Shown: positions 30,923-51,436 of the stretch, in pieces
Layout: the number at the start of each line of letters is the position of its first letter
Position numbering within the stretch: the first letter of the stretch is position 1
Assembly (NCBI RefSeq): GCF_056746865.1
Contig: NZ_CM163382.1
Direction: 5' to 3' (one strand)
DNA: 64,000 bases
Position numbers and translations under genes: made by a program
The notes under the pieces: model-generated
What the model was told of the DNA's origin: nothing
The model's database searches: none
Seen by the model: only the letters and a program-made list of their open reading frames with translations

Positions 30923-31957
30923 ATGAAAGATTATCTACAAACTGTGACGGGCCCCGTCGCCCGTGAAGATATGGGGCTAACACTTCCTCATGAACATCTG
31001 TTCAACGATCTTTCCTCTGTTGTGGATGCTCCTTGCTATCCTTTTTCACAACGGCTTGTTGATAAAAAAGTCACGGCAGAAATCCAGTGGGCATTAAAAC
31101 ACGATCCTTATTGCTGCGCTGATAATATGGACCGCAAACCTATTGAAGATGTGATCTTCGAAATTAATAACTTTATCTCGCTCGGTGGTCGCACCATTGT
31201 TGATGCCACAGGGTCTGAGTCTATCGGACGAGATGCGCAGGCATTACGAGAAGTCGCATTAAAAACAGGTCTGAATATTGTTGCTTCCTCCGGTCCCTAC
31301 CTGGAAAAATTTGAAAGCCAGAGAATTCATAAAACGGTTGATGAACTGGCGACAACGATCGATAAAGAATTGAATCAAGGGATTGGCGATACGGATATTC
31401 GTGCCGGAATGATCGGTGAAATAGGTGTCTCACCGACATTTACCGAAGCCGAGCATAACAGCTTGCGGGCTGCCTCGCTGGCACAGATTAACAATCCTCA
31501 TGTGGCGATGAATATTCACATGCCGGGCTGGCTTCGTCGCGGTGATGAAGTACTCGACATTGTGTTAGGTGAAATGGGCGTCTCGCCAAATAAAGTCTCT
31601 CTCGCACACTCGGATCCGTCAGGAAAAGACGTGGCGTATCAGCGGAAAATGCTTGATAAAGGTGTCTGGCTGGAATTCGACATGATTGGCCTAGACATTA
31701 CCTTCCCGAAAGAGGGAATAGCGCCAGGGGTGCAGGAGACTGCCGATGCCGTCGCTCATCTCATTGAGTTGGGATACGCCGATCAGCTTGTTCTCAGCCA
31801 CGATGTCTTCCTTAAACAAATGTGGGCTAAAAATGGCGGTAATGGCTGGGGATTTGTTCCAGATGTTTTTCTGGCCTATCTGGCGGAGCGCGGCGTCGAT
31901 AAAACGATCCTCAAAAAACTCTGTATCGATAATCCCGGACGATTATTGACCGCATAA
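30923..31957 (+). CDS. phosphotriesterase-homology protein (amidohydrolase superfamily, Php-like)
   Basis: 344-aa ORF; metal-binding HEH at the N-terminus (LPHEHLF), later His/Asp ligands; start 3 nt after the transporter stop. Confidence 0.75.
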   Translation: MKDYLQTVTGPVAREDMGLTLPHEHLFNDLSSVVDAPCYPFSQRLVDKKVTAEIQWALKHDPYCCADNMDRKPIEDVIFEINNFISLGGRTIVDATGSESIGRDAQALREVALKTGLNIVASSGPYLEKFESQRIHKTVDELATTIDKELNQGIGDTDIRAGMIGEIGVSPTFTEAEHNSLRAASLAQINNPHVAMNIHMPGWLRRGDEVLDIVLGEMGVSPNKVSLAHSDPSGKDVAYQRKMLDKGVWLEFDMIGLDITFPKEGIAPGVQETADAVAHLIELGYADQLVLSHDVFLKQMWAKNGGNGWGFVPDVFLAYLAERGVDKTILKKLCIDNPGRLLTA

Positions 31958-31996: not shown

Positions 31997-32335
31997 TTAA
32001 TACCCCGCCGTTAAATCATCCACCAAGCGCGAGTCGGATGCGCCGTACAACTCACCATCCGACCCAACCATAATGCTTTGCGTGCTGCCCATCGCCTCAT
32101 TCAGCGCCACTTTCTGACCTTTTGCTTCCAGCAGCTTGAGCGTATCCGGACTAAACCCTTTTCAACACGCAGCTCGTCCGGCAACCACTGATGGTGGAAA
32201 CGAGGCGCATTGGTCGCTTCGGCAACATTCATTCCACAATTGATGCTGTTCACCACCATTTGCGGCACGGTAGTGATGATCCAGCTACCGGTAACAAAGT
32301 GAGTACATAAAGGCCATACTGTCACGAACAGTGCA
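31997..32335 (-). pseudogene. ggt: gamma-glutamyltranspeptidase 3' fragment
   Basis: minus strand encodes ...TTVPQMVVNSINCGMNVAEATNAPRFHHQWLPDELRVEKG, then after a frameshift ...DSRLVDDLTAGY*. Confidence 0.7.
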
Positions 32336-32608
32336 AAAGTGGCTCTTCCTCAACCTAGGTGAAGATTTTCATGCCAGTGGACTCATTACCCTCCGCCTAA
32401 GTAGTTCAAGTCCGGCTCGACCATACATCTGGCGTATCAGCACCTTCAGGCGATTTACATGACCTTCGACAACACCAGTACTCCAGCGACTGCTGATTGC
32501 CTCACATATAGCCGCAGCATCAGCTTCCATCCCCGCAGCTACGCACCGAAGTTCTGCTGAGCCGCTTTCGTGGACCCGAGTGAACCAGCTGCTTAGCTGT
32601 GATTTATT

Positions 32609-33988
32609 TTAGGTTTTCAGAATACGGTAGAACTCGAGTACCAGTTGCTGCGCTATTTTCAACTCCGGTTCTTTTTCACACATCAGACTAATAAATCGGA
32701 AAGCATAATTTTCTTCACCCCTGATTATTCTCCAGGGCATCAACCAGCGGCTTACCCGTGACACTGAAGGAAGTCTTGCGGCAGTAGTAACCGGTGGGAT
32801 CCAGCCTTTATGCCATTTGGCAACAGCATCCCTGACGATGGTTTCACTGCCTGTAACCCCCCTGGCCACCATTTCCCGCCATATCCGGCCGGAGTTATAA
32901 TTACCACATTCTCGTTGCTCTTTTAACCACTCCCTCCATGGGTCCAGAAGCCCTCGCTTTGGAGGCCTGGTTGACATTTCAGGGAATGTTCCTGAACCCA
33001 CCCAGCGACTGACTGTCACTCGCGACAGGCCTGTAATACGGGATATTTCCCTGAAACTACATCCCTTGTTATGCAGGGCCATAACCTCTGTCCAACGCTG
33101 ATGCCGTTTTTTGCGGATGTGCTGTTTAAGGCGTTCCAGACGACGGAGCGATGCTACAGGCACAGATATTTCTGGCTCAGGTGATTTCTTCAGTGATAAC
33201 TCTCTGACAACAAGACGTATCAGAGGCATATGTCTGTACATCATTCGTTCAGGCTCATCACCAATATTTTTTAGCAGGTGCCATCGATCGGCCACCTGTC
33301 TGGCCTGAGGTGCACCTTCACGTGCTGCTGTCGCATAGACTCCACTGCGATCACGCGAGACAACCTGTATTTCCGGATATTTTCTGAACCAGGTCGCCAG
33401 CGTACGCTGATCACGGCCGGGAAGCAGGACGAGGGGACGGTGAGTATCAGGATTGACTATTAACATACCGCAGCAGTGGCCCCGATGCCACGCCCACTCA
33501 TCAATACCGACATGAGGCGCGCCTGACTGTTTCGTCTCCGGGGTATTGATAAGCCTGCGAAGAAGAGTATCAGCACTGCAACGGAGACCCACTGCCGTTG
33601 CAGCCCGTTTTCCAGCCTCACCTCCAGCTATTAATCCCAGTTGACGTTGTTAATTTTGTAACGCCTGTGAAGACTGCTGGTGTGAACTGGCGAAGGGAGC
33701 AAGCGACTCGGCAAAAATTTTACGTGAACAAGCCGGGTTACGGCAGTACCAGTGGCGGACGGAAAATACAAGCCATAGCGTCTGCCCTGAGCAGGGTAGA
33801 TGCTGTATCCGGCGCCGACGACAACTATGAACAGAGTCGCTACGCTTAAAGCATTCAGGACATTGTGCTGTTTTGCGTTTTCCGTGGAGATGGAGGGTTA
33901 TACCGTCAGAGCTAATAATTTGTCGACTGCATCGCCATCCGCAAGGTAACTGTAGAAGTGTCTTAAGAGAGTGCATTGCGTTGCCCAT
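32609..33988 (-). pseudogene. ISL3-family transposase, split by a frameshift
   Basis: ORF 33650..33988 has the zinc-ribbon N-terminus (LHLHGKRKTAQCPEC...HLPCSG...WYCRNPACSRKIFAE); ORF 32609..33592 has the DDE core (GIDEWAWHRGH...DRWHLLKN). Confidence 0.6.
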
Positions 33989-34271
33989 AACTTAAAACAG
34001 CTTAGATCCTTGTTCGCCAGAAAGTTTCATCCATTTTCTTCCACCCAGGTTGCGGAAGAACCACTTTTCATCCGTCGTTGACAGATGTGAAGTATGCGGG
34101 AGAAAAAGTGAATATCTAACTGTAATAACTCAGACCGGTACGAGTACTCGGGACGTCTACAATCATTCAGGGCAAAGTGCTAAAATTTCTCTATCCCGGG
34201 ATGCCCCTACCAACGCAGCACTCCCGGAGATATCATTACAGCTCTGCAACTGATTTCCGCGACTGAACCGC

Positions 34272-34679
34272 TCAGTTCCTATCCTTCCAGTTGCCCTCCT
34301 GCCCCCCCTCCCTGCTGTATACCCCGGTACCACAACTCGGGCAGCACTTTTCCCCCTCATAATTTTCGTCACACATCACACAAAACCACTTTCTCACCTT
34401 CACCGTATAATCCGGAACCGTCATACCCTGCAGATGCAAACGACGGGCCTCTTTCTCTGCCGGGTCAAGCCAGGTGCATCGCAGCAGGATTTTCTCAGCG
34501 ACAGTCATCTGGTCATGTTCAAACCACGGTGGTTGTCCGTCATTGCCCCGCTGAAGTGTTAACGGGCATCCACAGGACACACAGCACAAAACGTCCTGGC
34601 GGTTGTGCTTCGCTGCTTCTTTCGCCGTAACAAAATGGCCTTTGCTGTCATTCGCCATATAACAGTTCAGAATTCGCAT
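34272..34679 (-). CDS. Cys-rich hypothetical protein (paralog B of a tandem pair)
   Basis: 135 aa from ATG 34679 with AGGAGG RBS; same CxxC...PWFEH...CxxC layout; overlaps paralog A stop by 13 nt. Confidence 0.45.
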   Translation of the reverse strand: MRILNCYMANDSKGHFVTAKEAAKHNRQDVLCCVSCGCPLTLQRGNDGQPPWFEHDQMTVAEKILLRCTWLDPAEKEARRLHLQGMTVPDYTVKVRKWFCVMCDENYEGEKCCPSCGTGVYSREGGQEGNWKDRN

Positions 34680-35074
34680 ATTTCCTCCTGAGTTGTCCGG
34701 GGAATACTGAATCCTCCGGTCTGGCAGTGTGTGCAGTACCGCTCCCCATAATAATCGTGGTGACATTGTCTGCAGTGCCAGCTGGCTTTACGCACCACGG
34801 GTAAGGCATCCGGTACGAATTGCTGCAGACGTTTAATCAACTGTATTTCTCTGCGCTCCGGCCTGACATAAGGGCACTGTTGACCGTGCTCTGTCAGCCT
34901 GTCGTCAGTGTGTTCAAACCAGGGAAGTTCAGTGTCGTATTGCGGATGGTATCTGAGTGCACTGCCACACAAGTGGCAGGTGTAGTTAGCATAAGGTGCG
35001 GCCTGTGCAGTACGGGCGCCCGTCAGACGTCCGTTGCCATCAAGAGCGATAAAGGATTTTGCGTACATAGTCAT
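34667..35074 (-). CDS. Cys-rich hypothetical protein (paralog A of a tandem pair)
   Basis: 135 aa; CxxC...PWFEH...CxxC pattern; GAGGA RBS. Confidence 0.45.
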   Translation of the reverse strand: MTMYAKSFIALDGNGRLTGARTAQAAPYANYTCHLCGSALRYHPQYDTELPWFEHTDDRLTEHGQQCPYVRPERREIQLIKRLQQFVPDALPVVRKASWHCRQCHHDYYGERYCTHCQTGGFSIPRTTQEEICEF

Positions 35075-37423: not shown

Positions 37424-37630
37424 ATGGCTACCCCAGTTTCGCTGATGGATGACCAGATGGTCGACATGGCGTTTATCACTCAACTGACCGGCCTTACCGA
37501 TAAGTGGTTTGACAAACTCATCAAAGATGGGGGCTTTCCTGCGCCCATCAAAATGGGGCGCAGCTCCCGCTGGCTGAAAAGTGAAGTGGAAGCCTGGCTG
37601 CAGGCGCGTATTGCACAGTCCCGTCTGTAA
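37424..37630 (+). CDS. alpA: AlpA-family phage transcriptional regulator
   Basis: ORF 37223..37630; start ATG 37424 after GGAGG; 68 aa with MGRSSRWLKSEVEAWL. Confidence 0.75.
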   Translation: MATPVSLMDDQMVDMAFITQLTGLTDKWFDKLIKDGGFPAPIKMGRSSRWLKSEVEAWLQARIAQSRL

Positions 37631-37717
37631 TTTTTAACCACTAACCCTTCGCCCACAGCAGACGCAATCTCCGGCCTGCCGGCGGCGCTCTGCTGCCTGT
37701 TATCCCCCGTGAGGAAT

Positions 37718-38326
37718 ATGAAAATGAAACAACAGTATCAGACCCGTTACGAGCTGCTCCATGAAAACTACCAGAAATGGCTGACCGGCTTCACCCGGCA
37801 CGCCGTATCATGGGGCGTGTGTCATCCGAATATCTACTATTTCCATAATCTGACGCCCGGGTGGGTGTCATTCAATGGCGAAAAACCGGAGATTGCCATC
37901 GTTCCCCAGAGTCTGCACCGGCTGATTTATGGTCCGGACAAACGGAGCTCCCCGTCCCTGGATGATGATCTGGTGGTGAATTTATGCACCAGCGAACACC
38001 TGCTGGTTCATCATCCGATGCTGGAAGGGATCCTGCTGTCTGAATGTGAGCGCCTGAAGCAACATTCTCTGGCAAACAAACTGATCAGCCTCTTCCGTCA
38101 GTTTGGCGGCACGGAGTTACGTCTCAAACTGGTCTGGCTCTGCTGGCTTGACTTAATGACCGGAAACAGCCTTGACGACTGGACGAAAAACCTGAAACAC
38201 AAATCAGAAAAAGATCTGGAGCAATGGATCATTGCACGTCAGGGTCAGAGTGAACCACTGACAAATCTGATGGATCAGTACGTGCTTATGGCATACCGTA
38301 CATCGGTTGATGCCGCTCACAGTTGA
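37718..38326 (+). CDS. hypothetical protein
   Basis: ORF 37709..38326; ATG 37718 after GAGGA; no recognised domain. Confidence 0.45.
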   Translation: MKMKQQYQTRYELLHENYQKWLTGFTRHAVSWGVCHPNIYYFHNLTPGWVSFNGEKPEIAIVPQSLHRLIYGPDKRSSPSLDDDLVVNLCTSEHLLVHHPMLEGILLSECERLKQHSLANKLISLFRQFGGTELRLKLVWLCWLDLMTGNSLDDWTKNLKHKSEKDLEQWIIARQGQSEPLTNLMDQYVLMAYRTSVDAAHS

Positions 38327-39285
38327 TGTCTGAGAACCACAGGGCTGGCAGCAGAAAACCAGCCCTGTGGTAAAATACAGTAATAGCGGCGTACATCAGG
38401 CACGCCGCTCACTCGTCCACAGATCATATACGTCATTATACTGCGCGATAACGGAGGGCTTCAGCACCCGGTCATTTCTGAGCGGGTATGAATACCATTG
38501 ATGATGCGAAGCAGCCACGGGCAGAAACGTTCTTCACAACCAGGTGCCTCCATCTTCACTGCAGTCTGAATGTGCCGGCTTGTTATCCACCAGAAATGGT
38601 ATGCTCCGGTACATGCATACCCCGGAGACTATAAACGCACTGAATCATAGCCTCCCACCTCAGCAGGAGGCAGTCAGCTTTCAGGCGGAAAAACGTTGCA
38701 GTTAAAGATCGTGAGAATCGCTGTTTCGTTGCATAGCAACCCGAACAGTTGTAGTGAAACATTTTACCTGCATCAGCACATGGTCAGGCGCCGTCTGTAT
38801 GGCGTGGAATACTGATGTTTCGGCTGATGGCAAGCCTCATTCTCTGTGGAAACAGGGGCGCGCATTAGCTTCTCAACCAAGAGAGTGTCACAAAGACAAA
38901 TATTGCTGAAAATCGCATTCATCGTTCAGGCGTGAATGCCCGGAGACAAAAGCCGCTGTCCACACAGTCCCCCTCTGACCTGAACAAAAAGCATACACAC
39001 AACAGGCTCACCTGACCCCGAAAAACCATAACTTCAGCAATACCAGTGACACCAGCACGTTACCTCAGTGCCACATCTTCAGACCGCGATCAATCTGAAA
39101 TGTGACTATCGGGGCAATATCCCTGCTTTGTGGTACACGATAACCAGAAAACATCCCCTGAACCGCCAGCCAGAAAGACTGGCCACAAAAGGGGTAAGCT
39201 GAAATCGTTTATGGATTACATCGACATATGCCTGGCAGAGAATGGTAAGCGTGCAGTGAGAACCGTATTGACGAAGTGAAGCTGG

Positions 39286-40821
39286 TCAGGCGGGCAGAGT
39301 AACCCGCCACGGGAGCAGAGCACCCACCCGGTTCACAGGCCAGTCGGCGATGACATCAAGTACATGATGCAGATAGCGTTCCGGATCCACGCCGTTTAAT
39401 TTGCACGTCCCGATAAGACTGTACAGTGACGCACCGCGCTCACCACCATGATCCGAGCCGAAGAACAGCCAGTTTTTTCTCCCCAGACTGACCAGTCGTA
39501 GGGCGTTTTCGGCAATGTTATTATCCACCTCCACCCAGCCATCTTCTGCATAGCGGGTCAGCGCCGGCCACTGGTTCAGCGCATACCCGAACGCCTTCGC
39601 CAGTTCTGAGTGCCTTGAGAGGGTTTTCTGTTTCTCCCGCAGCCACCCCTCCAGTGACGCCAGCAGCGGCAGCACTTTTTGGTGCCGGACTGCCTGCCGT
39701 TCCTCTGCTCTTTTACCTCTGAGCTCCGACTCGATGGCATACAGCTCGCCGATCCGTTTCAGCGCCTCCTCCGTCAGGGCTGACGGGGTACGGACGTGAA
39801 CATCGTGGATTTTTCGGCGGGCATGGGCCCAGCACGCGGCTTCCTTTATATGGCCGTCGCGGTAGAGCTCGTTGAACCCGGCGTAGGCATCAGCCTGCAG
39901 TACGCCACTGAAGCCTGCAAGATGGGTCTGAGGGTGGATACCTTTTCTGTCCGGGCTGTAAGCGAACCACACTGCGGGGGCCAGCGCTGATCCGGCGTTG
40001 CGGTCGTCTCGAACGTACGTCCATAAGCGCCCGGTCTTCGTCTTCTTATTGCCCGGCAACAGCACCGGGACAGGCATATCGTCAGCATGGAGTTTGCCGT
40101 CGGTCAGGACATAGTGCTGAAGGGCTTCATCCAGCGGTGCCAGCAGACGACAACACGCATCCACCCAGCCCGACAGTACAGAACGACTCAACACTACACC
40201 CTGGCGGGCATAGATCTCCGACTGGCGATACAGCGGTATGTGCTCTGCATACTTTGAGGTCAGCACTCGGGCCAGCAGCCCCGGTCCGGCGATCCCCCGT
40301 TCGATGGGGCGCGAAGGAGCCGGGGCCTGAACGATGCGATCGCACCGACGGCAGGCATGCTTTTCACGGACTGTCCGGATAACCCGGAAGGCGCTGCGCA
40401 TCAGCTCCAGCTGTTCGGCGGCATCCTCACCCAGGTAACTCAGCGAACCACCGCACTCCGGGCAACACGGCTCAGTCGGCAGCAGCCGCTTCTCATCCCG
40501 TGGGAGTGACTCAGGGAACGGTTTGCGGGTGCGGGTCTGACGCAGCGGGCGCTGCACTGCCGGGTCATCCACCCGGCCGGTCAGCGTATCGCTTTCCTGC
40601 TGCAGCAGGTTCAGGTCAGCTTCCATTTGCGCGATACGGCGGGATACCTTTTCGGAACGACTGCCGAAGTTCATCCGGCGCAGCTTATCCAGTTGCGCCT
40701 GCAGATGGTCTATTTCGCGTTCCCGGTTGCTCAGCTTTTCCTGCAGGGCGTGGATCAACGCTTCCTGGTTCGGCCAGGCGCTGTTTCAGCAGAAGGATGT
40801 CGTCAGAAGAGGTGTCGTTCA
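39286..40821 (-). pseudogene. IS66 transposase TnpC with a frameshift in the first ~20 codons
   Basis: ATG 40821 encodes MNDTSSDDILLLKQRLAE, then one extra C shifts into the long ORF (QEALIHALQEKL...) at 40758..39286. Confidence 0.7.
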
Positions 40822-40871
40822 TAAGCCTGTATTTTACCAGGCTTATTCTGCGACAACCAGGATAAAGAGCG

Positions 40872-41219
40872 CTACAACATGGTCAGGGATGTCAGTAACC
40901 GCTTTGGCTGTCGCCAGTCGATACCTTCCATCAGCATCGCCAGTTGCGCCGGCGTCAGGAACACTTTGCCATCGCGGGCTGAGGGCCAGGCGAAGCGACC
41001 ACGTTCTAGTCGCTTTGTCAGCAGGCACAGACCATCGCCGGTGGACCAGAGCAGTTTTACCTGACTGCCGCTGCGTCCCCGGAAGATGAAGACGTGGCCG
41101 GACATCGGGTCATCTTTCAGCGCGGTCTGCACCTTTGCGGCGAGGCCATTGAAGCCGTTGCGCATATCGGTGATACCGGCAACCAGCCAGATTTTTGTGC
41201 CTGCGGGAAGATTTATCAT
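40872..41219 (-). CDS. IS66 accessory protein TnpB
   Basis: 115 aa, MINLPAGTKIWLVAGITDMRNGFNGL... Confidence 0.85.
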   Translation of the reverse strand: MINLPAGTKIWLVAGITDMRNGFNGLAAKVQTALKDDPMSGHVFIFRGRSGSQVKLLWSTGDGLCLLTKRLERGRFAWPSARDGKVFLTPAQLAMLMEGIDWRQPKRLLTSLTML

Positions 41220-41599
41220 ACAGGCCCCCGCATCAGTTCGCGCAGGACAGTGCTCATGAGTTCAGCAGAGGGATGAGTCAGTGTTATTTCTCCTCCCCGA
41301 CATTTTATGTGGCAGGTAGCGGGAGGAGAGCAGGATGGTAGTTCGAAGGTTGGGAGAGAAGAGCCCGCCTGAAGCTGCACGGGTATCAGGGCAGGAAGCG
41401 ACGATGAGTTTTTTCGGGGCCGACAGACCCGCCCTTCACGCTGCCAGAGCCTTATCCATTTAAAGAGCAGGTTATCATTGACGTCATGTTTCCGGGCCAG
41501 TGCGGCAATACTGCCTTCTTCTTCAAGAGCCAGCCTGACCAGTTCCATTTTGAATTCAGGGGAATAGTGTTTCCGGGGAAGTCTTTCTTTAGCGCGCAT
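41216..41599 (-). CDS. IS66 accessory protein TnpA
   Basis: 127-aa ORF whose stop overlaps the tnpB start. Confidence 0.7.
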   Translation of the reverse strand: MRAKERLPRKHYSPEFKMELVRLALEEEGSIAALARKHDVNDNLLFKWIRLWQREGRVCRPRKNSSSLPALIPVQLQAGSSLPTFELPSCSPPATCHIKCRGGEITLTHPSAELMSTVLRELMRGPV

Positions 41600-43154
41600 G
41601 AGGTGTCCACCTGCAAAATAAGTGGGTGCTTAAGTTACAGGATCCTGGATTCGGGACCAGACGGTACTCAGACGACGCTTACAGAGAATGTCCGGAATGA
41701 CGAGGTTATCTTTGCGGAGATTAAGGCAATGGTATACGGGCCGACGTTCCATGCCGCGTTACTACATTCAGCCCGGACGTAAAATGCGCCCGTCAAAAAG
41801 AACGGTTCGCTTCGAAACTCAGCCAGGATACCACCTCTCCGCCACACCCGGGAAGAAGTTGATATGGTGGTTGCCGGACAACAGCGCTCCTGGATTGACT
41901 GCTGCATCACTCAACCACGCTGAATATCAAAGGAGAGCGTTACCGGTTAAAAGAGAAACGTAAAGCTGTGGTGATGACCCAAAACGCAACGCCTGTCAGT
42001 GAGGATGAAATGGTGAAAAGCGGACAGCATCAGTAACGGAAGTATCTTAGCGGGTACGAAAATGGCAGGATCGTGACATTGACAGAATATCTCCTGATCA
42101 TCCTGAATGACTGCAGTTGCTGTAGAAAAGTAAGCTGTCTCCACCCACGGCACCACTTAACAGGCATTCCGTAACTTCCCCCAGACTTACTATGACGCAT
42201 TATCGGTGCACTGAAAACGGGAGAGTGCGCTTAAAACCGCAGACCGCATGCGGGTGTTACTGCATGACAGTCTGGCCGTATTGTGAGATGTCGGCAGGAA
42301 CCGATGTCCGCGCAGGGGGGAACTTCCTGCAGTACCTGACGCTTCAAATGGTATTAACCGTAGGGTGTTGTTGGTTCCGGATCGCGGAAATGGGAGCACA
42401 GGTCTGCTACGGGGTGTACCTCTGACAGTATATCCGGCTCGCTCATCTGACAGCCTCTCTCCCGGAAAAGACCAAAAATGAGATCGTCTCCTCAACAGCA
42501 GAGAAGAGGTCTTGACAGACAGGCTATATTGCATACGATTTATGAAGAAAAAGACAGCAAATATGGAGGTTATAGCGGAGAATACCCTACGAAATTCCTA
42601 TGAAAAACGATTGAAAAAAATATCAAATTCGATTCGTTTTTATATGCTTTTTGGGAGCGTGGCGATGACGAACTGTTGCATGTGCAGAGGAGAATGCACC
42701 CGGAAGCACCAGAATCATCCAGAAAGGCAGAACGATTACGCATCAAACCAGGAGACAGCAATATCAAGGTAATATACTGATTTAAAATGAATTTACAGCA
42801 ATACGTGAAAACATTTTTTACTTAAAGGAGACAGATGCGCTGAAGAGAGTGCAAGTATTTTTATATAAAAATGAGAAGTTTACGGGATGTATATCCGGCA
42901 CACTATGACCGGAGAATATCAGTCAAGCTTAAAAAGACAATAAATACAGTGAGTTAAATACACAGAGAAAACGTAGTATCAGAGGGTACATCTTACAACA
43001 GAGACTGAATTTCCGGTTTTTCATAACCGGCGCATTCCGGAAAGTGCAGGCGGCCCGGAGGTTTTCTGACGCCACTACCTGGTAGATTGTTCTGTACATC
43101 ATGTACGGAGGTTTTTGTTTGCTTTTTTAAAATCTGCAAATGTGAGAAAAGCAG

Positions 43155-44318
43155 GTGAGGTGTATTGTGGGAAAGGAACTGGATGATATCTGCACCAGCT
43201 GTCCGTATATCGATGCTGTAAAACGGCACAAACAACAGCTCGGTGCCATAGAGGAATATACACAGTGGTTAAAAAAAGAACCACGGGCATCTTATTTTTT
43301 TCTGTTCCAGCTGTATACCCGCATTCACAATACATTTTTCTCCCAAAAGCAACAACTCCCGTTCACTCCCGGTGGCACTCACTGCCCGGAACCTGATGTC
43401 ACCCTTCGGGACTTAACGCTTTCCCCTGGCTACCACAGTGATTATGCCCCTCAACCCATTCCGGAGATGGACAGTTCTGCTGTTGTTCCCCCAACTAATG
43501 AAAACACCTCGCCTCCGGAAGATACTCCCGACAACACTCCGGCCGGAGGCAATACCGGACAAGCGGAAAAGACCAGAAACGCAGGACTCACACCCATTCC
43601 TGAAAAACGTTCAGGAATGCCCCCGGAACATCTGCGGTTTGCCACGGGGTTTCCATCGCAACCGAAGATTGCCGGTCCCAGAGAAAAGCCGATGCGCACC
43701 GTGCATCCGGATAAAATCTACCGTGAAATTATATGGTTCTGCTCCAGTTACCTGCTGAAATCCGGACCAGAGGCTACGAGGACGATTATCAACTCAGTAT
43801 TCTCTGAATGGGCCAGCATAAACAATGATTACCCCTCCCCCTTTTCGTGGGTGGACAGCAGGGACAGTGAACAGTGTGACTGGTTATGGAACGCCATGCA
43901 GGTCCGGTGTGTGGGAACCCCGCTGAATCCCCTTACCCCGGAGCAGAAATACTGGTTTGCCTGCGCCACGTTTGATAACTGGGAGGGCTGGAATGAGCAA
44001 CAGGTACAGTTTTTACTGGAAAGTAATCCCAGACGGAACAGAGCGAAGTTTACGCAGGTCTCCTTCCAGGCCCCCAGGATTCAGCATAAAGCGATTCTTC
44101 TTGATGAGCTGAAAAGTGCCCGGGAGCAACAAAAAAGGCGTGATGAACGTGCTGATGGTTCCGTCCCTCTGAAACTGTCCGGAAAAATCCACAAACAGCT
44201 TGAAAGTATTGCCCGAAGTCGTGGTGTCCTCCCAAAAAAACTGCTGAATGAAATGATTGAGCAGGCGTACCATGATTTGGTGGCAACCAGGCAGAACAGC
44301 CAAATCGATTCCAGATAA
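43155..44318 (+). CDS. hypothetical protein with a Pro/Thr-rich central linker
   Basis: 387-aa ORF; start uncertain (GTG 43155 or 43167); no recognised domain. Confidence 0.5.
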   Translation: MRCIVGKELDDICTSCPYIDAVKRHKQQLGAIEEYTQWLKKEPRASYFFLFQLYTRIHNTFFSQKQQLPFTPGGTHCPEPDVTLRDLTLSPGYHSDYAPQPIPEMDSSAVVPPTNENTSPPEDTPDNTPAGGNTGQAEKTRNAGLTPIPEKRSGMPPEHLRFATGFPSQPKIAGPREKPMRTVHPDKIYREIIWFCSSYLLKSGPEATRTIINSVFSEWASINNDYPSPFSWVDSRDSEQCDWLWNAMQVRCVGTPLNPLTPEQKYWFACATFDNWEGWNEQQVQFLLESNPRRNRAKFTQVSFQAPRIQHKAILLDELKSAREQQKRRDERADGSVPLKLSGKIHKQLESIARSRGVLPKKLLNEMIEQAYHDLVATRQNSQIDSR

Positions 44319-44839
44319 TTTCAGACAGATATTATTTCCGTGAATCCCCCGCCACCTTTCCGGTGCGCGGGGTTTTGTCTTTTTTCACCGGGAATACATG
44401 TATGAATCCGTCTGATGCCATTGAGGCAATTGAAAAACCGCTCTCCTCCCTGCCTTACTCACTTTCCCGTCACATCCTGGAACATCTGCGCAAACTCACC
44501 AGTCACGAACCCGTGCCTGGCATTATGGGTAAAAGCGGGGCCGGTAAATCCTCACTCTGTAATGCGCTGTTTCAGGGGGAGGTCACCCCGGTCAGTGATG
44601 TTCACGCCGGCCCCCGGGAAGTGCAGCGCTTCCGTCTTGCAAAATGGCATCTGAATCGATCGCAGTTTGGCATTCGAATCGATCATGATTTGGCATCCAT
44701 CTCCGATCACAGTTTGGCATCACAATCGATCACGATTTGGCATGCTTCCGATCATTGATTGGCATCCTGCCAGTCACTCCGGGAATTAACTCTTTTCACC
44801 ACAGTCTCCATTGCCGTGTTTAAACCAGTGGAGACGTCA

Positions 44840-46405
44840 ATGTCCAGAAAGAGAAAATCCAGGAGCACTATGGAAACCTGTTTTAAGATTCTTCAGCTCA
44901 AGTTCGACAAGAAGCTGACTAACCGTTGTATCGGACTGACGTTACACATCAGCGCCTCAACCGTTTTTGAGGTTCTTGCCCGCTTCAAAGCCTCTTCTCT
45001 GTCATGGCCATTACCTGCTGATATATCCCATGACACGCTGGAGAAACTCATTTTTCCGCCCAAAGACACCTTTGCATCAGAGCTTGTAATGCCTGACATG
45101 TTGTACCTCGATACGGAAATGAGAAAACCAGGTGTGACGCGGCAACTGTTGTGGATGGAATACAAGGCACAGGCGGGTAACAAAGCGATGGGATACTCGC
45201 ACTTCTGCCGTTGCTACCGGGAGTGGAAAAAAACGCGACGTCTCTCCATGCGCCAGGAGCATCGTGCCGGCGAAAAGCTTTTTATCGACTTCTGTGGTCC
45301 TACGGTTCCTGTTATTAATCCGGACACCGGTGAGATACGCCGCGTGGCAATCTTCGTGGCCGTAATGGGGGCGTCCAACTATACCTACGTTGAAGCGTGC
45401 GAAGGTCAGGACATGATGTCATGGTTAAATGCCCACAGCCGTTGCCTGACCTTCCTGGGCGGCGTACCGAAGCTGCTCATCCCCGATAACCTCAGAAGCG
45501 CAGTGAAAAAGGCCGATCGATATGAGCCTGTCATCAACGACAGTTATCAGGCACTGGCTGAGCACTATGGCACGGTTATCATCCCGGCCCGACCACGCAA
45601 ACCTAAAGATAAACCAAAAGCAGAAAACGGCGTCCTCATCGTCGAACGATGGCTTCTTGCCCGCATCCGTAATGAAACCTTCCACACGCTCAGGGCGCTG
45701 AATGCGCGCCTTAGGGAGTTACTGACAGACATGAATAACCGGCCAATGAAGGGGTACGGCAATCAAACCCGTGCAGAACGCTTCCGCATACTGGATGCGC
45801 CAGCACTCTCTCCGCTGCCTCTGGCACCTTATGAATACACGGAATACAAAGCTGTGAAGGTTGGCCCTGACTACCACGTTGAATATGCCCGTCACTGGTA
45901 CTCCGTTCCACACGAACTGGTCGGTCAGCGTCTGTCACTGAAGGCGGGGCAGTCGGTGGTACAGCTCTGGCACAAGGGGCAGTGTGTGGCGCAACATCCG
46001 CGCAGCACACATGAATATAAACACACAACCAATCCGCTTCACATGCCAGAGCGCCACCGGCAGCACGGGACATGGACACCGGAACGCCTGATCGAGCAGG
46101 GAAAACGTACGGGCCCGTCCACAGGCCGGGTGGTTGAATCCATGCTGAAGGCAAAACCCCATCCGGAACTGGCTTATCGTGCAGTTCTGGGGCTGCTGGC
46201 ACTTCAGAAAAAATACGGCCCGGAACGGCTGGAAAAGGCCTGTTACGTTGCCCTGCACTATAACGCCCCTGACAGACGCTTTATCGACAATCTGCTGCGT
46301 CACCATCGGGAGAACCTGGAGCTTCCATTATCCCGCCAGGGCGAACAACATCCGGCATATGCTTCAGAGCATGAAAACCTGCGTGGTCCGGGCTACTACC
46401 ACTGA
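44840..46405 (+). CDS. istA: IS21-family transposase IstA
   Basis: ORF 44759..46405; start placed at MSRKRKS (44840), uncertain. Confidence 0.8.
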   Translation: MSRKRKSRSTMETCFKILQLKFDKKLTNRCIGLTLHISASTVFEVLARFKASSLSWPLPADISHDTLEKLIFPPKDTFASELVMPDMLYLDTEMRKPGVTRQLLWMEYKAQAGNKAMGYSHFCRCYREWKKTRRLSMRQEHRAGEKLFIDFCGPTVPVINPDTGEIRRVAIFVAVMGASNYTYVEACEGQDMMSWLNAHSRCLTFLGGVPKLLIPDNLRSAVKKADRYEPVINDSYQALAEHYGTVIIPARPRKPKDKPKAENGVLIVERWLLARIRNETFHTLRALNARLRELLTDMNNRPMKGYGNQTRAERFRILDAPALSPLPLAPYEYTEYKAVKVGPDYHVEYARHWYSVPHELVGQRLSLKAGQSVVQLWHKGQCVAQHPRSTHEYKHTTNPLHMPERHRQHGTWTPERLIEQGKRTGPSTGRVVESMLKAKPHPELAYRAVLGLLALQKKYGPERLEKACYVALHYNAPDRRFIDNLLRHHRENLELPLSRQGEQHPAYASEHENLRGPGYYH

Positions 46406-46421
46406 CAGAAGGAACAACAGT

Positions 46422-47177
46422 ATGAGTGATAACCTGTTAAACAAACTGACCCAACTGAAACTCCCGGCGATGGCCGGGAGCCTGATACGGCAGCGGGAAA
46501 CGCCTCAGACCTACGACGAACTGTCGTTCGAGGAAAGGCTGACGCTGCTGGTTGATGACGAGCTTCTGAGCAGGGAAAACAGCCGTGTGGCACGGTTGAG
46601 AAAAAATGCCGGCCTGAAATACCAGGCAACACCGGAAGGGCTGCGCTATCCGGCCTCAAGAGGTCTGCGGGCTGAACAGATGAGAGAACTGCTGAACGGC
46701 CACTACATAACCCACAGGAAAAACCTGCTGATAACCGGTCCGACAGGATGTGGCAAGAGCTGGATAGCCAATGCGCTGGGCGAACAGGCATGTCGACAGA
46801 AACACAGCGTCCGGTACTGTAGAACCGGGCGATTACTGGAACAACTGGCTCAGGGACGTGTTGATGGCAGCTGGCTGAAATATCTGAAACAGTTGCAAAA
46901 AATACAGGTTCTAATCCTGGACGATCTGGGGCTGGAACAGTTAAGTAACGCCCAGTGTAATGACCTTCTGGAGCTCATAGAGGATCGTTACGGACAAAGC
47001 AGCACGATAGTGGTAAGCCAGTTCCCGGTAGATAAATGGCATGGTCTGATGGAGAACCCAACAACAGCAGATGCCATCCTGGACAGACTGGTACATAACT
47101 CACACCGGGTGGTCCTTCAGGGAGAGTCACTGAGGAAAAATCCCCCGGTAGTGGAAAGCAGCGAAAAAACGCGTTAA
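46422..47177 (+). CDS. istB: IS21-family ATP-binding helper IstB
   Basis: start ATG 46422 (MSDNLLNKL); Walker A GPTGCGKS; DExx-like LILDDLG. Confidence 0.85.
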   Translation: MSDNLLNKLTQLKLPAMAGSLIRQRETPQTYDELSFEERLTLLVDDELLSRENSRVARLRKNAGLKYQATPEGLRYPASRGLRAEQMRELLNGHYITHRKNLLITGPTGCGKSWIANALGEQACRQKHSVRYCRTGRLLEQLAQGRVDGSWLKYLKQLQKIQVLILDDLGLEQLSNAQCNDLLELIEDRYGQSSTIVVSQFPVDKWHGLMENPTTADAILDRLVHNSHRVVLQGESLRKNPPVVESSEKTR

Positions 47178-48038
47178 AAAGCGGTAGAAAAAGTTAAGTT
47201 CCCGGTTGATCGAATGGATGCGAATCGCTGATCGGACTTCGATGCCAATCCGTGATCGAATAGAGCGGAATACGCATCCGTCTGAATGGCCATGGTCACA
47301 GCATGGTTATCACTGACCTGCCCGGGGTGGGCGAGAGCCGGGACAGGGATGCAGAGTATGAAGCCCTGTACCGTGACATTCTGCTCGAACTGGACCTGGT
47401 ACTGTGGCTGATTAAAGCCGATGACCGTGCCCTGTCTGTGGATGAGTATTTCTGGCGACACATCCTGCACCGGGGACATCAGCGGGTACTGTTTGTGGTG
47501 ATGCAGGCCGATAAAACGGAGCCCTGCCATGAATGGGATATGGCCGGTATTCAGCCTTCTCCCGCACAGGCACAGAACATTCGCGAAAAAACGGAGGCGG
47601 TATTCCGTCTGTTCCGGCCCGTACATCGGGTTGTTGCCGTATCGGCCCGCACCGGCTGGGAACTGGATACGCTGGTCAGTGCGCTCATGACAGCACTTCC
47701 CGACCATGCCGCCAGTCCCCTGATGACCCGCCTGCAGGACGAGCTGCGCACGGAGTCTGTCCGGTCTCAGGCCCGTGAACAGTTTACCGGTGCGGTGGAC
47801 CGGATATTTGACACGGCGGAGAGCGTCTGCATTGCCTCTGTTGCACGCACGGTTCTGCGCGCCGTCCGTGACTCGGTGGTCTCTGTTGCCCGCGCGGTAT
47901 GGAACTGGATTTTCTTCTGAACCCGGTGGTGATGTACCAGGCTGTTGTTACAGATTTTTAACTCCATGAAAACACTATGCAAACGCAGCCATACCCGGGT
48001 TGTCCCCTTGCGTTGTGTTTCTCAAGTTAATAGAATAC

Positions 48039-48080
48039 ATCGATCGTTACTATCATATCGATCGTTATAAACGATCGTTT
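48039..48080 (+). promoter_or_regulatory. three operator-like repeats with palindromic CGATCG cores upstream of the dynamin-like gene
   Basis: ATCGATCGTTA at 48039 and 48057, AACGATCGTTT at 48070; AGGAAGG RBS at 48124..48130. Confidence 0.45.
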
Positions 48081-48137
48081 GTAGTAAATGACCTCCTCCG
48101 TGGTTGTCATGAAAATGCGTCTTAGGAAGGTTAAATA

Positions 48138-50534
48138 ATGCACGAAAAGAACATCGCCCTGCTTTGTGATGAAGCCGACCGACTTTTGCAACTGAACATT
48201 AATCTGCTCCGGCAAATGGTTGAGGAGCCAGATGTGTTATCTGACAGTAAGAACGAAAACAGACTGCTTTTTGATAAACAGAAAGCACTGAAAAGAATTG
48301 AGGAGCTGGAGGGCGAACAAATCAAAACCGCCCGCAGGGAGATGGTGCTGGCTGTTGTCGGCACGATGAAAGCAGGCAAATCAACCACCATCAACGCCAT
48401 TGTGGGGCAGGAAATTCTGCCTAACCGTAACCGCCCCATGACCTCTGTACCGACGCTCATCCGCCACGTTCCCGGAAAAACTGAGCCGGTTCTCCATCTG
48501 GAACATATTCAGCCTGTCCGCAATTTATTAATCACACTGCAGGAAAAACTCGCCACCCCGGCAGGACAGCAGGTCGCACAGACCCTGCAGCAAACCGGGG
48601 ATACCCGCGAACTGCTGGATATTCTGACGGATGATGGCTGGCTCAAAAATGAATACCACGGGGAGGAGGAAATCTTTACCGGACTGGCATCGTTAAACGA
48701 TCTGGTTCGTCTTGCTGCGGCAATGGGGACTGAATTTCCTTTTGATGAATACGCAGAAGTGCAGAAACTGCCGGTGATCGACGTGGAATTCAGCCATCTG
48801 GTGGGGATGGATGCATGCCAGGGAACACTCACACTGCTGGATACCCCCGGCCCTAATGAGGCCGGACAACCGCAGATGGAAGTGATGATGCGGGATCAAC
48901 TGCAGAAAGCCTCTGCGGTTCTGGCTGTGATGGATTACACCCAGATGAACTCAAAAGCGGATGAAGACGTCCGTAAAGAGCTTAATGCCATTGCTGACGT
49001 ATCAGCCGGCCGCCTGTTTGTACTGGTCAATAAATTTGATGAGAAAGACCGCAATGGCGATGGGGCAGATGCCGTACGCCAGAAAGTTCCGGCAATGCTG
49101 AACAGCGATGTGCTGCCCGCCTCCCGCGTTTATCCCGGATCCTCACGCCAGGCATACCTGGCTAACCGTGCGCTTCATGAGTTACGGAAAAACGGAACCC
49201 TTCCTGTTGATGAAGCCTGGGTCGATGATTTTATCAGAGGTGCCTTCGGTTGCATGAAAAAAGAATACGTCTGTAAAGACAGTGAACTGGCAACTGAAGG
49301 GGCGACAGACCTGTGGGAAGGCTCACTTATCGATCAACTGATAACGGAAGTCATACAGAGCTCACATTCCAGAGCTGCGGCACTGGCGGTTGACTCTGCC
49401 GCCGCAAAACTGATGCAGAATGCAGAAAATATCAGTGAATACCTGTTGTTACGCCATCAGGGGCTACAGCAAAGCATTCAGTCACTGCAGTCGCATATCA
49501 CCAGCCTGCTTGCGGATATCCGGGAAATCGCGGACTGTCAGGAGCAGATGACCACTGATGTCAGAATGGCCATGGAGGAGATCGATACTAAAACCCGGGA
49601 ATTACTGACGGGGGTCTGCACCTCACTGGAAGAGGAGCTGAATGACTATTTCAGAAGCGGTAAACGCAAAGAACAGCAAATGCTGGAGGAAGAAGACGCA
49701 GAACAACGAAGGTCTCAGTCCGGATTATGGGGGAAAATTTCTCAATGGTCCGGTATCAACAACCAGGGCCGGGAGGATTACAGGAAACGAGATTTTGCCC
49801 CGGACAGCCCCGAAATAAAATTCAGTGATCGCAGGGAAGCCCTTGAACTGATGACGCAAATCGAATCGACCGTGACCAGCCTGCACCGTGAGGCTGAAGC
49901 ACAGTTCCGGCCTGAGCTGGAGAAAATCGTCAGCGGGATTGAAACAGGTTTTCGTGGCACGGCCCTGTACGCCACAGAAAACATTGCCGGTCGCATCAAT
50001 GCCCGCCTGGAGGATGAGGGCTTTACCGTAAAAATCAGTTTTCCGGCAGTCAGCCAGTTACAGACCCGGCTCGCGGTAAAAATAAATCTGAGTGCGCTTA
50101 TGGAGGAAAGAACGGAGACCGTCACCCGTCGCCGTCGGCAGAGTGGCGTATGGGGAACCGTTTGTCGATGGTTTGGCACCAGTGACCTGGGCTGGGAAAA
50201 CTATGACGAGGATGTGAGTCGCAGCGTGATCAATATCAACAAGGTCAGAGAGGAAGTTATGTCACTGACCCGGGCATATTTCGGGGAGCTGCAGGCATCC
50301 ATTGAGCAGGATATTAACCAGCCCGTCCGCCAGGAAATCGATGCCTTTTTCTGCGCATTCAGGGAGAAAGTTGAACAACTGCGTAACACGCTGATTCAGA
50401 GCTCTGAAGATCATAAACGCGATCAGCAGGCGCAGGAACGGCTTACCGGGCGACTTCAGGCATTAAATGAAAGGGTTCCTGAGCTCATTACTGACAGTAA
50501 GGCGCTGAGGGAAGAGCTGGAGACAATGCTGTGA
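48138..50534 (+). CDS. dynamin-like GTPase (bacterial dynamin-like protein)
   Basis: 798 aa; G1 GTMKAGKSTTINAIVG, G3 LLDTPGPNE, G4 VLVNKFD; long helical C-terminal half. Confidence 0.85.
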   Translation: MHEKNIALLCDEADRLLQLNINLLRQMVEEPDVLSDSKNENRLLFDKQKALKRIEELEGEQIKTARREMVLAVVGTMKAGKSTTINAIVGQEILPNRNRPMTSVPTLIRHVPGKTEPVLHLEHIQPVRNLLITLQEKLATPAGQQVAQTLQQTGDTRELLDILTDDGWLKNEYHGEEEIFTGLASLNDLVRLAAAMGTEFPFDEYAEVQKLPVIDVEFSHLVGMDACQGTLTLLDTPGPNEAGQPQMEVMMRDQLQKASAVLAVMDYTQMNSKADEDVRKELNAIADVSAGRLFVLVNKFDEKDRNGDGADAVRQKVPAMLNSDVLPASRVYPGSSRQAYLANRALHELRKNGTLPVDEAWVDDFIRGAFGCMKKEYVCKDSELATEGATDLWEGSLIDQLITEVIQSSHSRAAALAVDSAAAKLMQNAENISEYLLLRHQGLQQSIQSLQSHITSLLADIREIADCQEQMTTDVRMAMEEIDTKTRELLTGVCTSLEEELNDYFRSGKRKEQQMLEEEDAEQRRSQSGLWGKISQWSGINNQGREDYRKRDFAPDSPEIKFSDRREALELMTQIESTVTSLHREAEAQFRPELEKIVSGIETGFRGTALYATENIAGRINARLEDEGFTVKISFPAVSQLQTRLAVKINLSALMEERTETVTRRRRQSGVWGTVCRWFGTSDLGWENYDEDVSRSVININKVREEVMSLTRAYFGELQASIEQDINQPVRQEIDAFFCAFREKVEQLRNTLIQSSEDHKRDQQAQERLTGRLQALNERVPELITDSKALREELETML

Positions 50535-51436
50535 CTTCACCATTTATTCAACAAATTGCTGATAACCGGGTATGTCAGGTACTCACCTGTCTTCCTGAAA
50601 AATTTGTGGTTGATTTCGCAAACGGAATCGATGTTGCACAGGAGCATATCCGCACGGCCGGAGAGCGCACGTTCTTCCGGCGTTTAAAAGAGGGGCTGAC
50701 CGGCGAAGGCGCTGCACGGCAGAATGCCATCAATGCGTCGCTTGCACAGGGCGTTGAGGCGTCCCTGCGCTGGCTGACGGAGATGACAACGTCACTTGCC
50801 ACCACAAACTACGCGATTACCCGGGTAAACGACAGGGTCAGTTCACTGGTCAGTGATACAGCCAGGCTGGCGCATTATTCCGCAGATACGCGGGAGCAGT
50901 TACTCACCCTGGCCGATCAGGTTCACCATAAACTGAATCATCTTGAAGAAAAACTCCACCGTGTTGACCAGGTTCAGCGGGCGCAGTTACATCTTGAGCA
51001 GATATTCTCATGGTGGAGCGCCGGGCGATATGCGTCATTTTCCCCTGCCGGACGTTGTTATGTGGCACTTGAAGAGCTTCGCTGGGGCGCGTTTGGTGAT
51101 GTGATACGTCAGAGCGAAACAGGCCAGGTTAACCAGCTACTGGATATTCTCAGACATAAAGCATTAACGCAGATGGCACAGGAGAGTGGCGGTAGTGCAA
51201 CCGTGCGTCTGAACACTCTGGACTGGCTTGGTGGTCAGGGCCGGGAGCAGGCAGATAACGAGTGGCATGACGCGATTAACTGGCTGGGAGACTGGTGCAG
51301 TGAAGAGCAGCATCCGGTGATCTGGTCAACCACGCAGGCTGCAGAACACTTACCGGTTCGCATGCCTCGCCTCTGCTCTGCAGAACGCCTCTCTGAAAGT
51401 ATGGTCGATGAAATATTTCAGAAGGGGGCTGCATGA
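50531..51436 (+). CDS. hypothetical helical protein translationally coupled to the dynamin-like GTPase
   Basis: 301 aa; GTG start overlaps upstream TGA (GTGA at 50531..50534); no recognised motif. Confidence 0.65.
   Translation: MTSPFIQQIADNRVCQVLTCLPEKFVVDFANGIDVAQEHIRTAGERTFFRRLKEGLTGEGAARQNAINASLAQGVEASLRWLTEMTTSLATTNYAITRVNDRVSSLVSDTARLAHYSADTREQLLTLADQVHHKLNHLEEKLHRVDQVQRAQLHLEQIFSWWSAGRYASFSPAGRCYVALEELRWGAFGDVIRQSETGQVNQLLDILRHKALTQMAQESGGSATVRLNTLDWLGGQGREQADNEWHDAINWLGDWCSEEQHPVIWSTTQAAEHLPVRMPRLCSAERLSESMVDEIFQKGAA

Follow-up and report, generated by a model that had tools for sequence, protein, structure and literature searches.

The transposase gene of an ISEc38-type element in the tmaR-cobU island is broken into three parts by two point nonsense mutations

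How does an ISL3-type transposase gene come to lie in pieces in the chromosome of Escherichia coli? On the minus strand of the window, the whole stretch of 64,000 nucleotides analysed here, two open reading frames (ORFs) are listed one after the other, 33650-33988 (112 aa) and 32609-33592 (327 aa). The first-pass annotation took them for the zinc-ribbon and DDE parts of an inactivated insertion sequence (IS) copy, split into two parts lying in different frames. Both ORFs are real and each has its Pfam match; the frames, the number of parts and the lower boundary of the gene turned out otherwise.

One reading frame and two in-frame stops

A third short ORF (32369-32530, minus strand) lies just beyond the span that had been assigned to the gene. 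The starts of the three ORFs, at positions 33988, 33592 and 32530, are each congruent to 1 modulo 3, and a one-frame translation from 33988 to 32366 crosses all three pieces, with a single TAA separating each neighbouring pair. The gene and its parts are as follows.

32369..33988, minus strand: transposase pseudogene, 539 codons plus the natural TGA (32369-32371), one frame with two in-frame TAA codons (single-frame translation)
33653..33988, minus strand: piece 1, codons 1-112, zinc-ribbon N-terminus (Pfam Zn_ribbon_ISL3)
33650..33652, minus strand: L113* nonsense mutation, TAA here and TTA in intact copies (alignment, codon table and 45-mer search)
32612..33649, minus strand: piece 2, codons 114-459, with a helix-turn-helix (HTH), the start of the DDE domain (predicted D163 and D213) and an inserted HTH region (Pfam DDE_Tnp_ISL3, NCBIfam transpos_ISL3)
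32609..32611, minus strand: Q460* nonsense mutation, TAA here and CAA in intact copies (alignment, codon table and 45-mer search)
32369..32608, minus strand: piece 3, codons 461-539 plus TGA, the C-terminal end of the DDE domain with an SxGVVEG motif (predicted catalytic E508; Pfam DDE_Tnp_ISL3)

The gene is thus broken into three parts by two point nonsense mutations, without a frameshift. Its length of 1620 nt is that of intact ISEc38 genes (L002 and L003), and a three-way alignment with these two intact ISEc38-type copies contains zero indels across the element. In the same alignment, each stop is a single-base change from a sense codon, TTA (Leu113) to TAA and CAA (Gln460) to TAA. Automated annotation by PGAP of the identical sequence in strain BE2-5 reads "ISL3 family transposase; internal stop", also at 1620 nt. 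An active IS has an uninterrupted transposase frame, and here TAA interrupts it at codons 113 and 460; because of these nonsense mutations, the copy cannot make transposase.

This result also revises the extent of the gene, previously given as 32609-33988. The upper end stands, whereas the lower end, which had been read as the gene's own terminus, is the second stop, Q460*. The gene continues to 32369, and the last 79 codons, with the motif of the catalytic glutamate, had been missed.

Extent, ends and relatives of the element

Terminal inverted repeats had been expected near 32560 and 34020. A repeat search located them instead at 32320-32361 and 34042-34083; the arms it returned, 32319-32361 and 34042-34084, are 43 nt long and 77% complementary, which corresponds to imperfect repeats of ~42 nt. 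Homology with the intact copies in the three-way alignment begins and stops at these ends, at TGTCA...TGACA.

32320..34083, minus strand: complete ISEc38-type (ISL3 family) IS, 1764 bp, TGTCA...TGACA (megablast and three-way alignment)
34042..34083: left terminal inverted repeat (IRL), outer ~36 nt identical to the IRL of ISEc38 on pE1246_1 (repeat search)
32320..32361: right terminal inverted repeat (IRR), terminal 30 nt identical to the IRR of ISEc38 on pE1246_1 (repeat search)

By the ISfinder convention, isoforms of an IS share more than 90% nucleotide identity over their full length. In a megablast search against plasmids (query positions 2-1765), the window copy was 95.1-95.4% identical over 1764 bp to intact copies on IncF plasmids, and thus lies above this threshold relative to copies that PGAP names "ISL3-like element ISEc38 family transposase". 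On these alignments, we identify the element as a dead copy of ISEc38, of the ISL3 family, which was already known and already flagged by public annotation; the earlier call of an inactivated ISL3-family IS is borne out by the two in-frame TAA codons of this ISEc38 pseudogene. ISEc38 is catalogued in ISfinder and is routinely listed by MobileElementFinder surveys of E. coli (PMC10383658). In the literature on ISEc38, we found such survey listings and no mechanistic description.

The window copy shares with ISEc38 its length, ends, inverted repeats, the position of the single 1620-nt gene and the order of domains, namely a zinc ribbon, an HTH and a DDE_Tnp_ISL3 domain split by an inserted HTH region. 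It differs from ISEc38 in its two nonsense codons (L113* and Q460*), in 29 further amino acid replacements, in having no target-site duplication and in being fixed at a single site of the chromosome instead of scattered. The 29 codons differ from both intact references; the replacements include R172C, Y173C, T175M and L180P near the predicted first catalytic aspartate, and N504T and K518I in the C-terminal motif.

Judged by profile scores, the match to the ISL3 family far exceeds chance. Pfam Zn_ribbon_ISL3 (PF14690) matches piece 1 at aa 40-84 (E 4.7e-08, 33.7 bits against a cutoff of 25.5), and Pfam DDE_Tnp_ISL3 (PF01610) matches piece 2 over profile positions 1-105 (E 9.5e-16) and piece 3 over positions 196-239 of a model of length 240. 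Against NCBIfam transpos_ISL3 (NF033550; cutoff 180), the joined translation reaches 344.9 bits in a match that spans aa 31-535. The domains and ends of an ISL3 element are present, with a DDE_Tnp_ISL3 domain, an N-terminal zinc ribbon and terminal inverted repeats around a single gene; what the copy lacks are the marks of an active element, an intact ORF and a target-site duplication. We take D163, D213 and E508 to be the catalytic triad, a prediction that follows family motifs; the predicted E508 lies downstream of both stops.

Within the DDE domain lies a further segment:

32807..33082, minus strand: IS21-type HTH segment, codons 303-394, inside the ISL3 DDE domain (NCBIfam transpos_IS21, profile positions 2-100, E 8.6e-13)

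HTH_7, HTH_38 and HTH_29 match the intact ISEc38 protein at the same place, and an insertion of ~150-190 residues within the ISL3 DDE domain, part of which resembles the HTH at the N-terminus of IS21 transposases, is seen in intact ISEc38 copies too (for example L002:1596-3215). Going by these matches, the IS21-type HTH insertion is a property of the ISEc38 lineage generally and not peculiar to the window copy. Canonical ISL3 transposases (the IS204, IS1001, IS1096 and IS1165 group) have the zinc ribbon and DDE_Tnp_ISL3 domains in common with ISEc38, both above curated cutoffs, whereas in ISEc38 the 370-position NCBIfam model is stretched over 505 residues and the IS21-type HTH insertion interrupts the DDE domain.

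Distribution and decay in E. coli genomes

Using a 2.1-kb query that included both flanks and a coverage threshold of ≥80%, we found that 2745 of 5426 complete E. coli genomes carry the locus, with identities of 97.3-100%; at least 21 genomes were 100% identical across the whole 2.1 kb. The order of annotation is constant: zinc-ribbon gene, ISL3 pseudogene, remnant of the gamma-glutamyltransferase gene (ggt). Each lesion was then counted with allele-specific 45-mers, for which the 28-nt word of megablast means that a match demands an identical central base. The Q460* 45-mer was present in 2631 of the 5426 genomes and the L113* 45-mer in 816, while the sense TTA allele of codon 113 was present in 2280 genomes, a number in which intact ISEc38 copies are counted. 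In more distant strains, five orthologues were compared for their lesions:

RM13516: Q460* only
Ecol_656: stop at codon 88 and Q460*
2013C_3678: stop at codon 66, Q460* and +2 nt at codon 376
10034940-2: stop at codon 66, Q460* and +3 nt at codon 376
MRSN346647: L113* and -1 nt at codon 87, no Q460*

Of the lesions, Q460* is the most widespread and, if frequencies reflect the order of events, probably the earliest. The variety of the other lesions indicates that decay went on separately in each lineage. The presence of L113* without Q460* in MRSN346647 speaks against a simple order in which Q460* came first, and would require homoplasy, or gene conversion with an intact ISEc38 as donor. The MRSN346647 genome contains three ISEc38-type copies, and gene conversion between copies is a plausible account of its alleles.

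An ISEc38 pseudo-copy with IS91, IS911 and IS66 as neighbours was also seen on plasmid pE2865-2 (NZ_AP018810.1; L015:2755-4265). It is a mosaic, in which an ISEc38-like backbone carries a block that matches the chromosomal lineage exactly, Q460* included, and it has 4-nt and 105-nt deletions of its own. The mosaic suggests that IS copies on chromosome and plasmid have recombined or undergone gene conversion with one another, and its Q460*-type sequence implies that chromosomal-type and plasmid-type copies exchange sequence.

By the Nei-Gojobori method, dN/dS was 0.21 between two intact copies; for the window copy against orthologous pseudogenes it was 0.49-0.78, with all values below 1 and small counts (2-40 changes) behind them. 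The direction of this difference, small counts included, fits relaxed constraint.

Several other readings of the locus can be set against these data. A frameshift, whether accidental or programmed in the manner of IS1 and IS3, would place the zinc-ribbon and DDE parts in different frames; two separately listed ORFs are what it predicts, and genuine frameshifts do occur in other orthologues, at codon 87 of MRSN346647 (-1) and codon 376 of 2013C_3678 (+2). IS1 and IS3 bear a superficial likeness to the locus in that a DNA-binding ORF lies upstream of a catalytic ORF. However, a programmed -1 frameshift involves two overlapping ORFs in different frames, whereas the window element has neither a change of frame nor an overlap but a plain TAA break, and its relatives have one ORF. 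The three pieces share a frame, no indel separates them from the intact copies, and intact ISEc38 has a single 539-aa ORF, so that a two-frame organisation is foreign to the family. Frameshifting and programmed recoding were accordingly ruled out by coordinate arithmetic, single-frame translation and the indel-free alignment, and we give this reading practically no credence. Equally hard to credit is that the stops are sequencing or assembly errors in what is truly an intact, active ISEc38 transposase gene. Each stop is only one base from a sense codon, but the exact stop-bearing 45-mers recur in 816 (L113*) and 2631 (Q460*) independently assembled complete genomes, which effectively excludes the continuous ORF on resequencing that the first-pass annotation had named as its refutation. 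The genomes identical over the full 2.1 kb and the 29 replacements that accompany the stops likewise argue against error.

It is also conceivable, though very improbable, that a truncated product was co-opted, either the 112-aa zinc-ribbon peptide or, where Q460* stands alone, a 459-aa protein, which would bind ISEc38 ends and damp incoming plasmid ISEc38. Retention of the locus in about half of E. coli genomes, identity of the terminal 30 nt of both inverted repeats to active ISEc38 and a dN/dS that remains below 1 are in keeping with such a role. Against it, the N-terminus is broken variously by lineage (stop at codon 66, stop at 88, -1 at 87, stop at 113), so that no one truncated product is conserved, many strains have had the locus deleted by other ISs, and dN/dS is higher than between intact copies. 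Domestication of the N-terminal ORF was judged unlikely on the ground that orthologues break the N-terminus at different codons. A broader version, to which we allow a slim chance, is that the dead copy is functional in trans, in that it might be mobilised by a plasmid-borne ISEc38 transposase, or its truncated N-terminal DNA-binding product might inhibit or titrate that enzyme and so confer a chromosomal "immunity" to an incoming IS. Mobilisation would be possible because the terminal 30 nt are identical to those of active ISEc38. We consider it almost certain that the locus as a whole is explained as a fixed, non-autonomous ISEc38 remnant inactivated by point nonsense mutations.

The element itself is ordinary and nothing about it is new; what is useful is the corrected mechanism, extent and ends. 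With three pieces and ends at 32320 and 34083 on record, the locus is kept from passing for a gene with a frameshift or recoding. In E. coli surveys, many "ISEc38" calls may reflect this fixed, dead chromosomal copy and not an active element, and the graded, lineage-specific lesions could help, on a small scale, to trace the phylogeny of the tmaR-cobU island.

The target site, the ggt junction and the surrounding island

ISL3-family elements normally generate an 8-bp target-site duplication on insertion. No 8-bp duplication is present at the element, where the 8 nt of the left flank are TTCACATC and those of the right flank GTATGGCC. A clean 8-bp duplication was likewise not found at four independent intact copies (L002, L012 and L013 at one site; L003, L011 and L014 at separate ones), and the missing duplication at the window copy therefore carries little weight. 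On the right, the element adjoins the truncated gene:

31997..32319, minus strand: ggt remnant, approximately the last 100 codons, itself frameshifted and cut at the right end of the IS (phmmer, PGAP)

PGAP describes this remnant as "frameshifted; missing N-terminus". In a phmmer search against PDB, residues 5-56 of the translation from 32319 aligned to residues 454-505 of the 556 of E. coli GGT (E 1e-20). Since the alignment begins at the fifth residue after 32319, ggt is truncated within ~15 nt of the IS terminus. The missing 5' part of ggt does not lie across the IS; the zinc-ribbon gene ending at 34272 occupies the other side. The missing duplication, a weak test, fits a deletion adjacent to the IS or recombination between two copies. 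Two loci matching one flank only, considered as "empty sites" from before the insertion, both proved to be secondary deletions beside IS3-family elements.

A history of the locus can be proposed from these observations. An ISEc38 copy would have arrived next to a zinc-ribbon gene that belongs to a CP4-44-like integrative island, with a ggt paralogue on its other side. Either this insertion or a subsequent deletion or recombination associated with the IS would have taken ~450 codons from the 5' side of ggt together with any target-site duplication, a scenario suggested by the absence of the duplication and the loss of the ggt 5' part. Q460* probably came first and would have removed the C-terminal ~80 residues with the predicted third catalytic residue, and L113* would have followed in the sub-lineage of the window. 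Thereafter the gene would have drifted under relaxed constraint, with the copy persisting only as junk of the island through vertical inheritance and occasional recombination.

The host region is a CP4-44-like island between tmaR (yeeX) and cobU. Its genes include cbtA/cbeA, yeeS/T/W and genes for antirestriction, DUF932, patatin-like, RdcB and dynamin-family proteins, alongside an IS21-type element, parts of IS66 and many annotated pseudogenes. In other strains, parts of the locus have been lost beside IS3-family elements. The earlier view of the island as old and heavily reworked is supported by the fixation of this copy in 2745 of the 5426 genomes, by the lesions added in separate lineages and by the island's wealth of pseudogenes and IS fragments.

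Adjoining the ggt remnant is a cluster of four genes that appear intact (30923-31957 and onward, downstream, as far as about 27400), which PGAP annotates as encoding a phosphotriesterase-related protein, a DMT transporter, a glutamine amidotransferase and a PfkB kinase. The cluster is flanked by IS66 and other transposase fragments, and the php-like gene is a pseudogene in several other strains. Just upstream of the IS, at 34272-35074 on the minus strand, are two small, overlapping, paralogous zinc-ribbon genes with CxxC...CxxC motifs; this pair adjoins an "inovirus Gp2 family" gene and is kept in strains without the IS.

BE2-5, otherwise nearly identical, is not collinear with the whole window: about 37433-50818 and 54460-57249 are missing from BE2-5, and BE2-5 carries an additional prophage at sbcB. 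For the segments absent from BE2-5, annotation was taken from strain KMi025; window coordinates there are approximate. By homology to KMi025, these segments contain a dynamin-family gene split by an IS21-type element (istA/istB), a gene of the GTPase family, a copy of IS66 whose tnpC has an internal stop, and the cbtA/cbeA-yeeS/T/W module. The yeeJ inverse-autotransporter region differs as well: over part of it, about 2725-6928, there is no blastn match longer than 300 nt to BE2-5, and the block aligned after it (6928-11201) is only 96% identical; the yeeJ difference looks like allelic or repeat variation in an adhesin gene.
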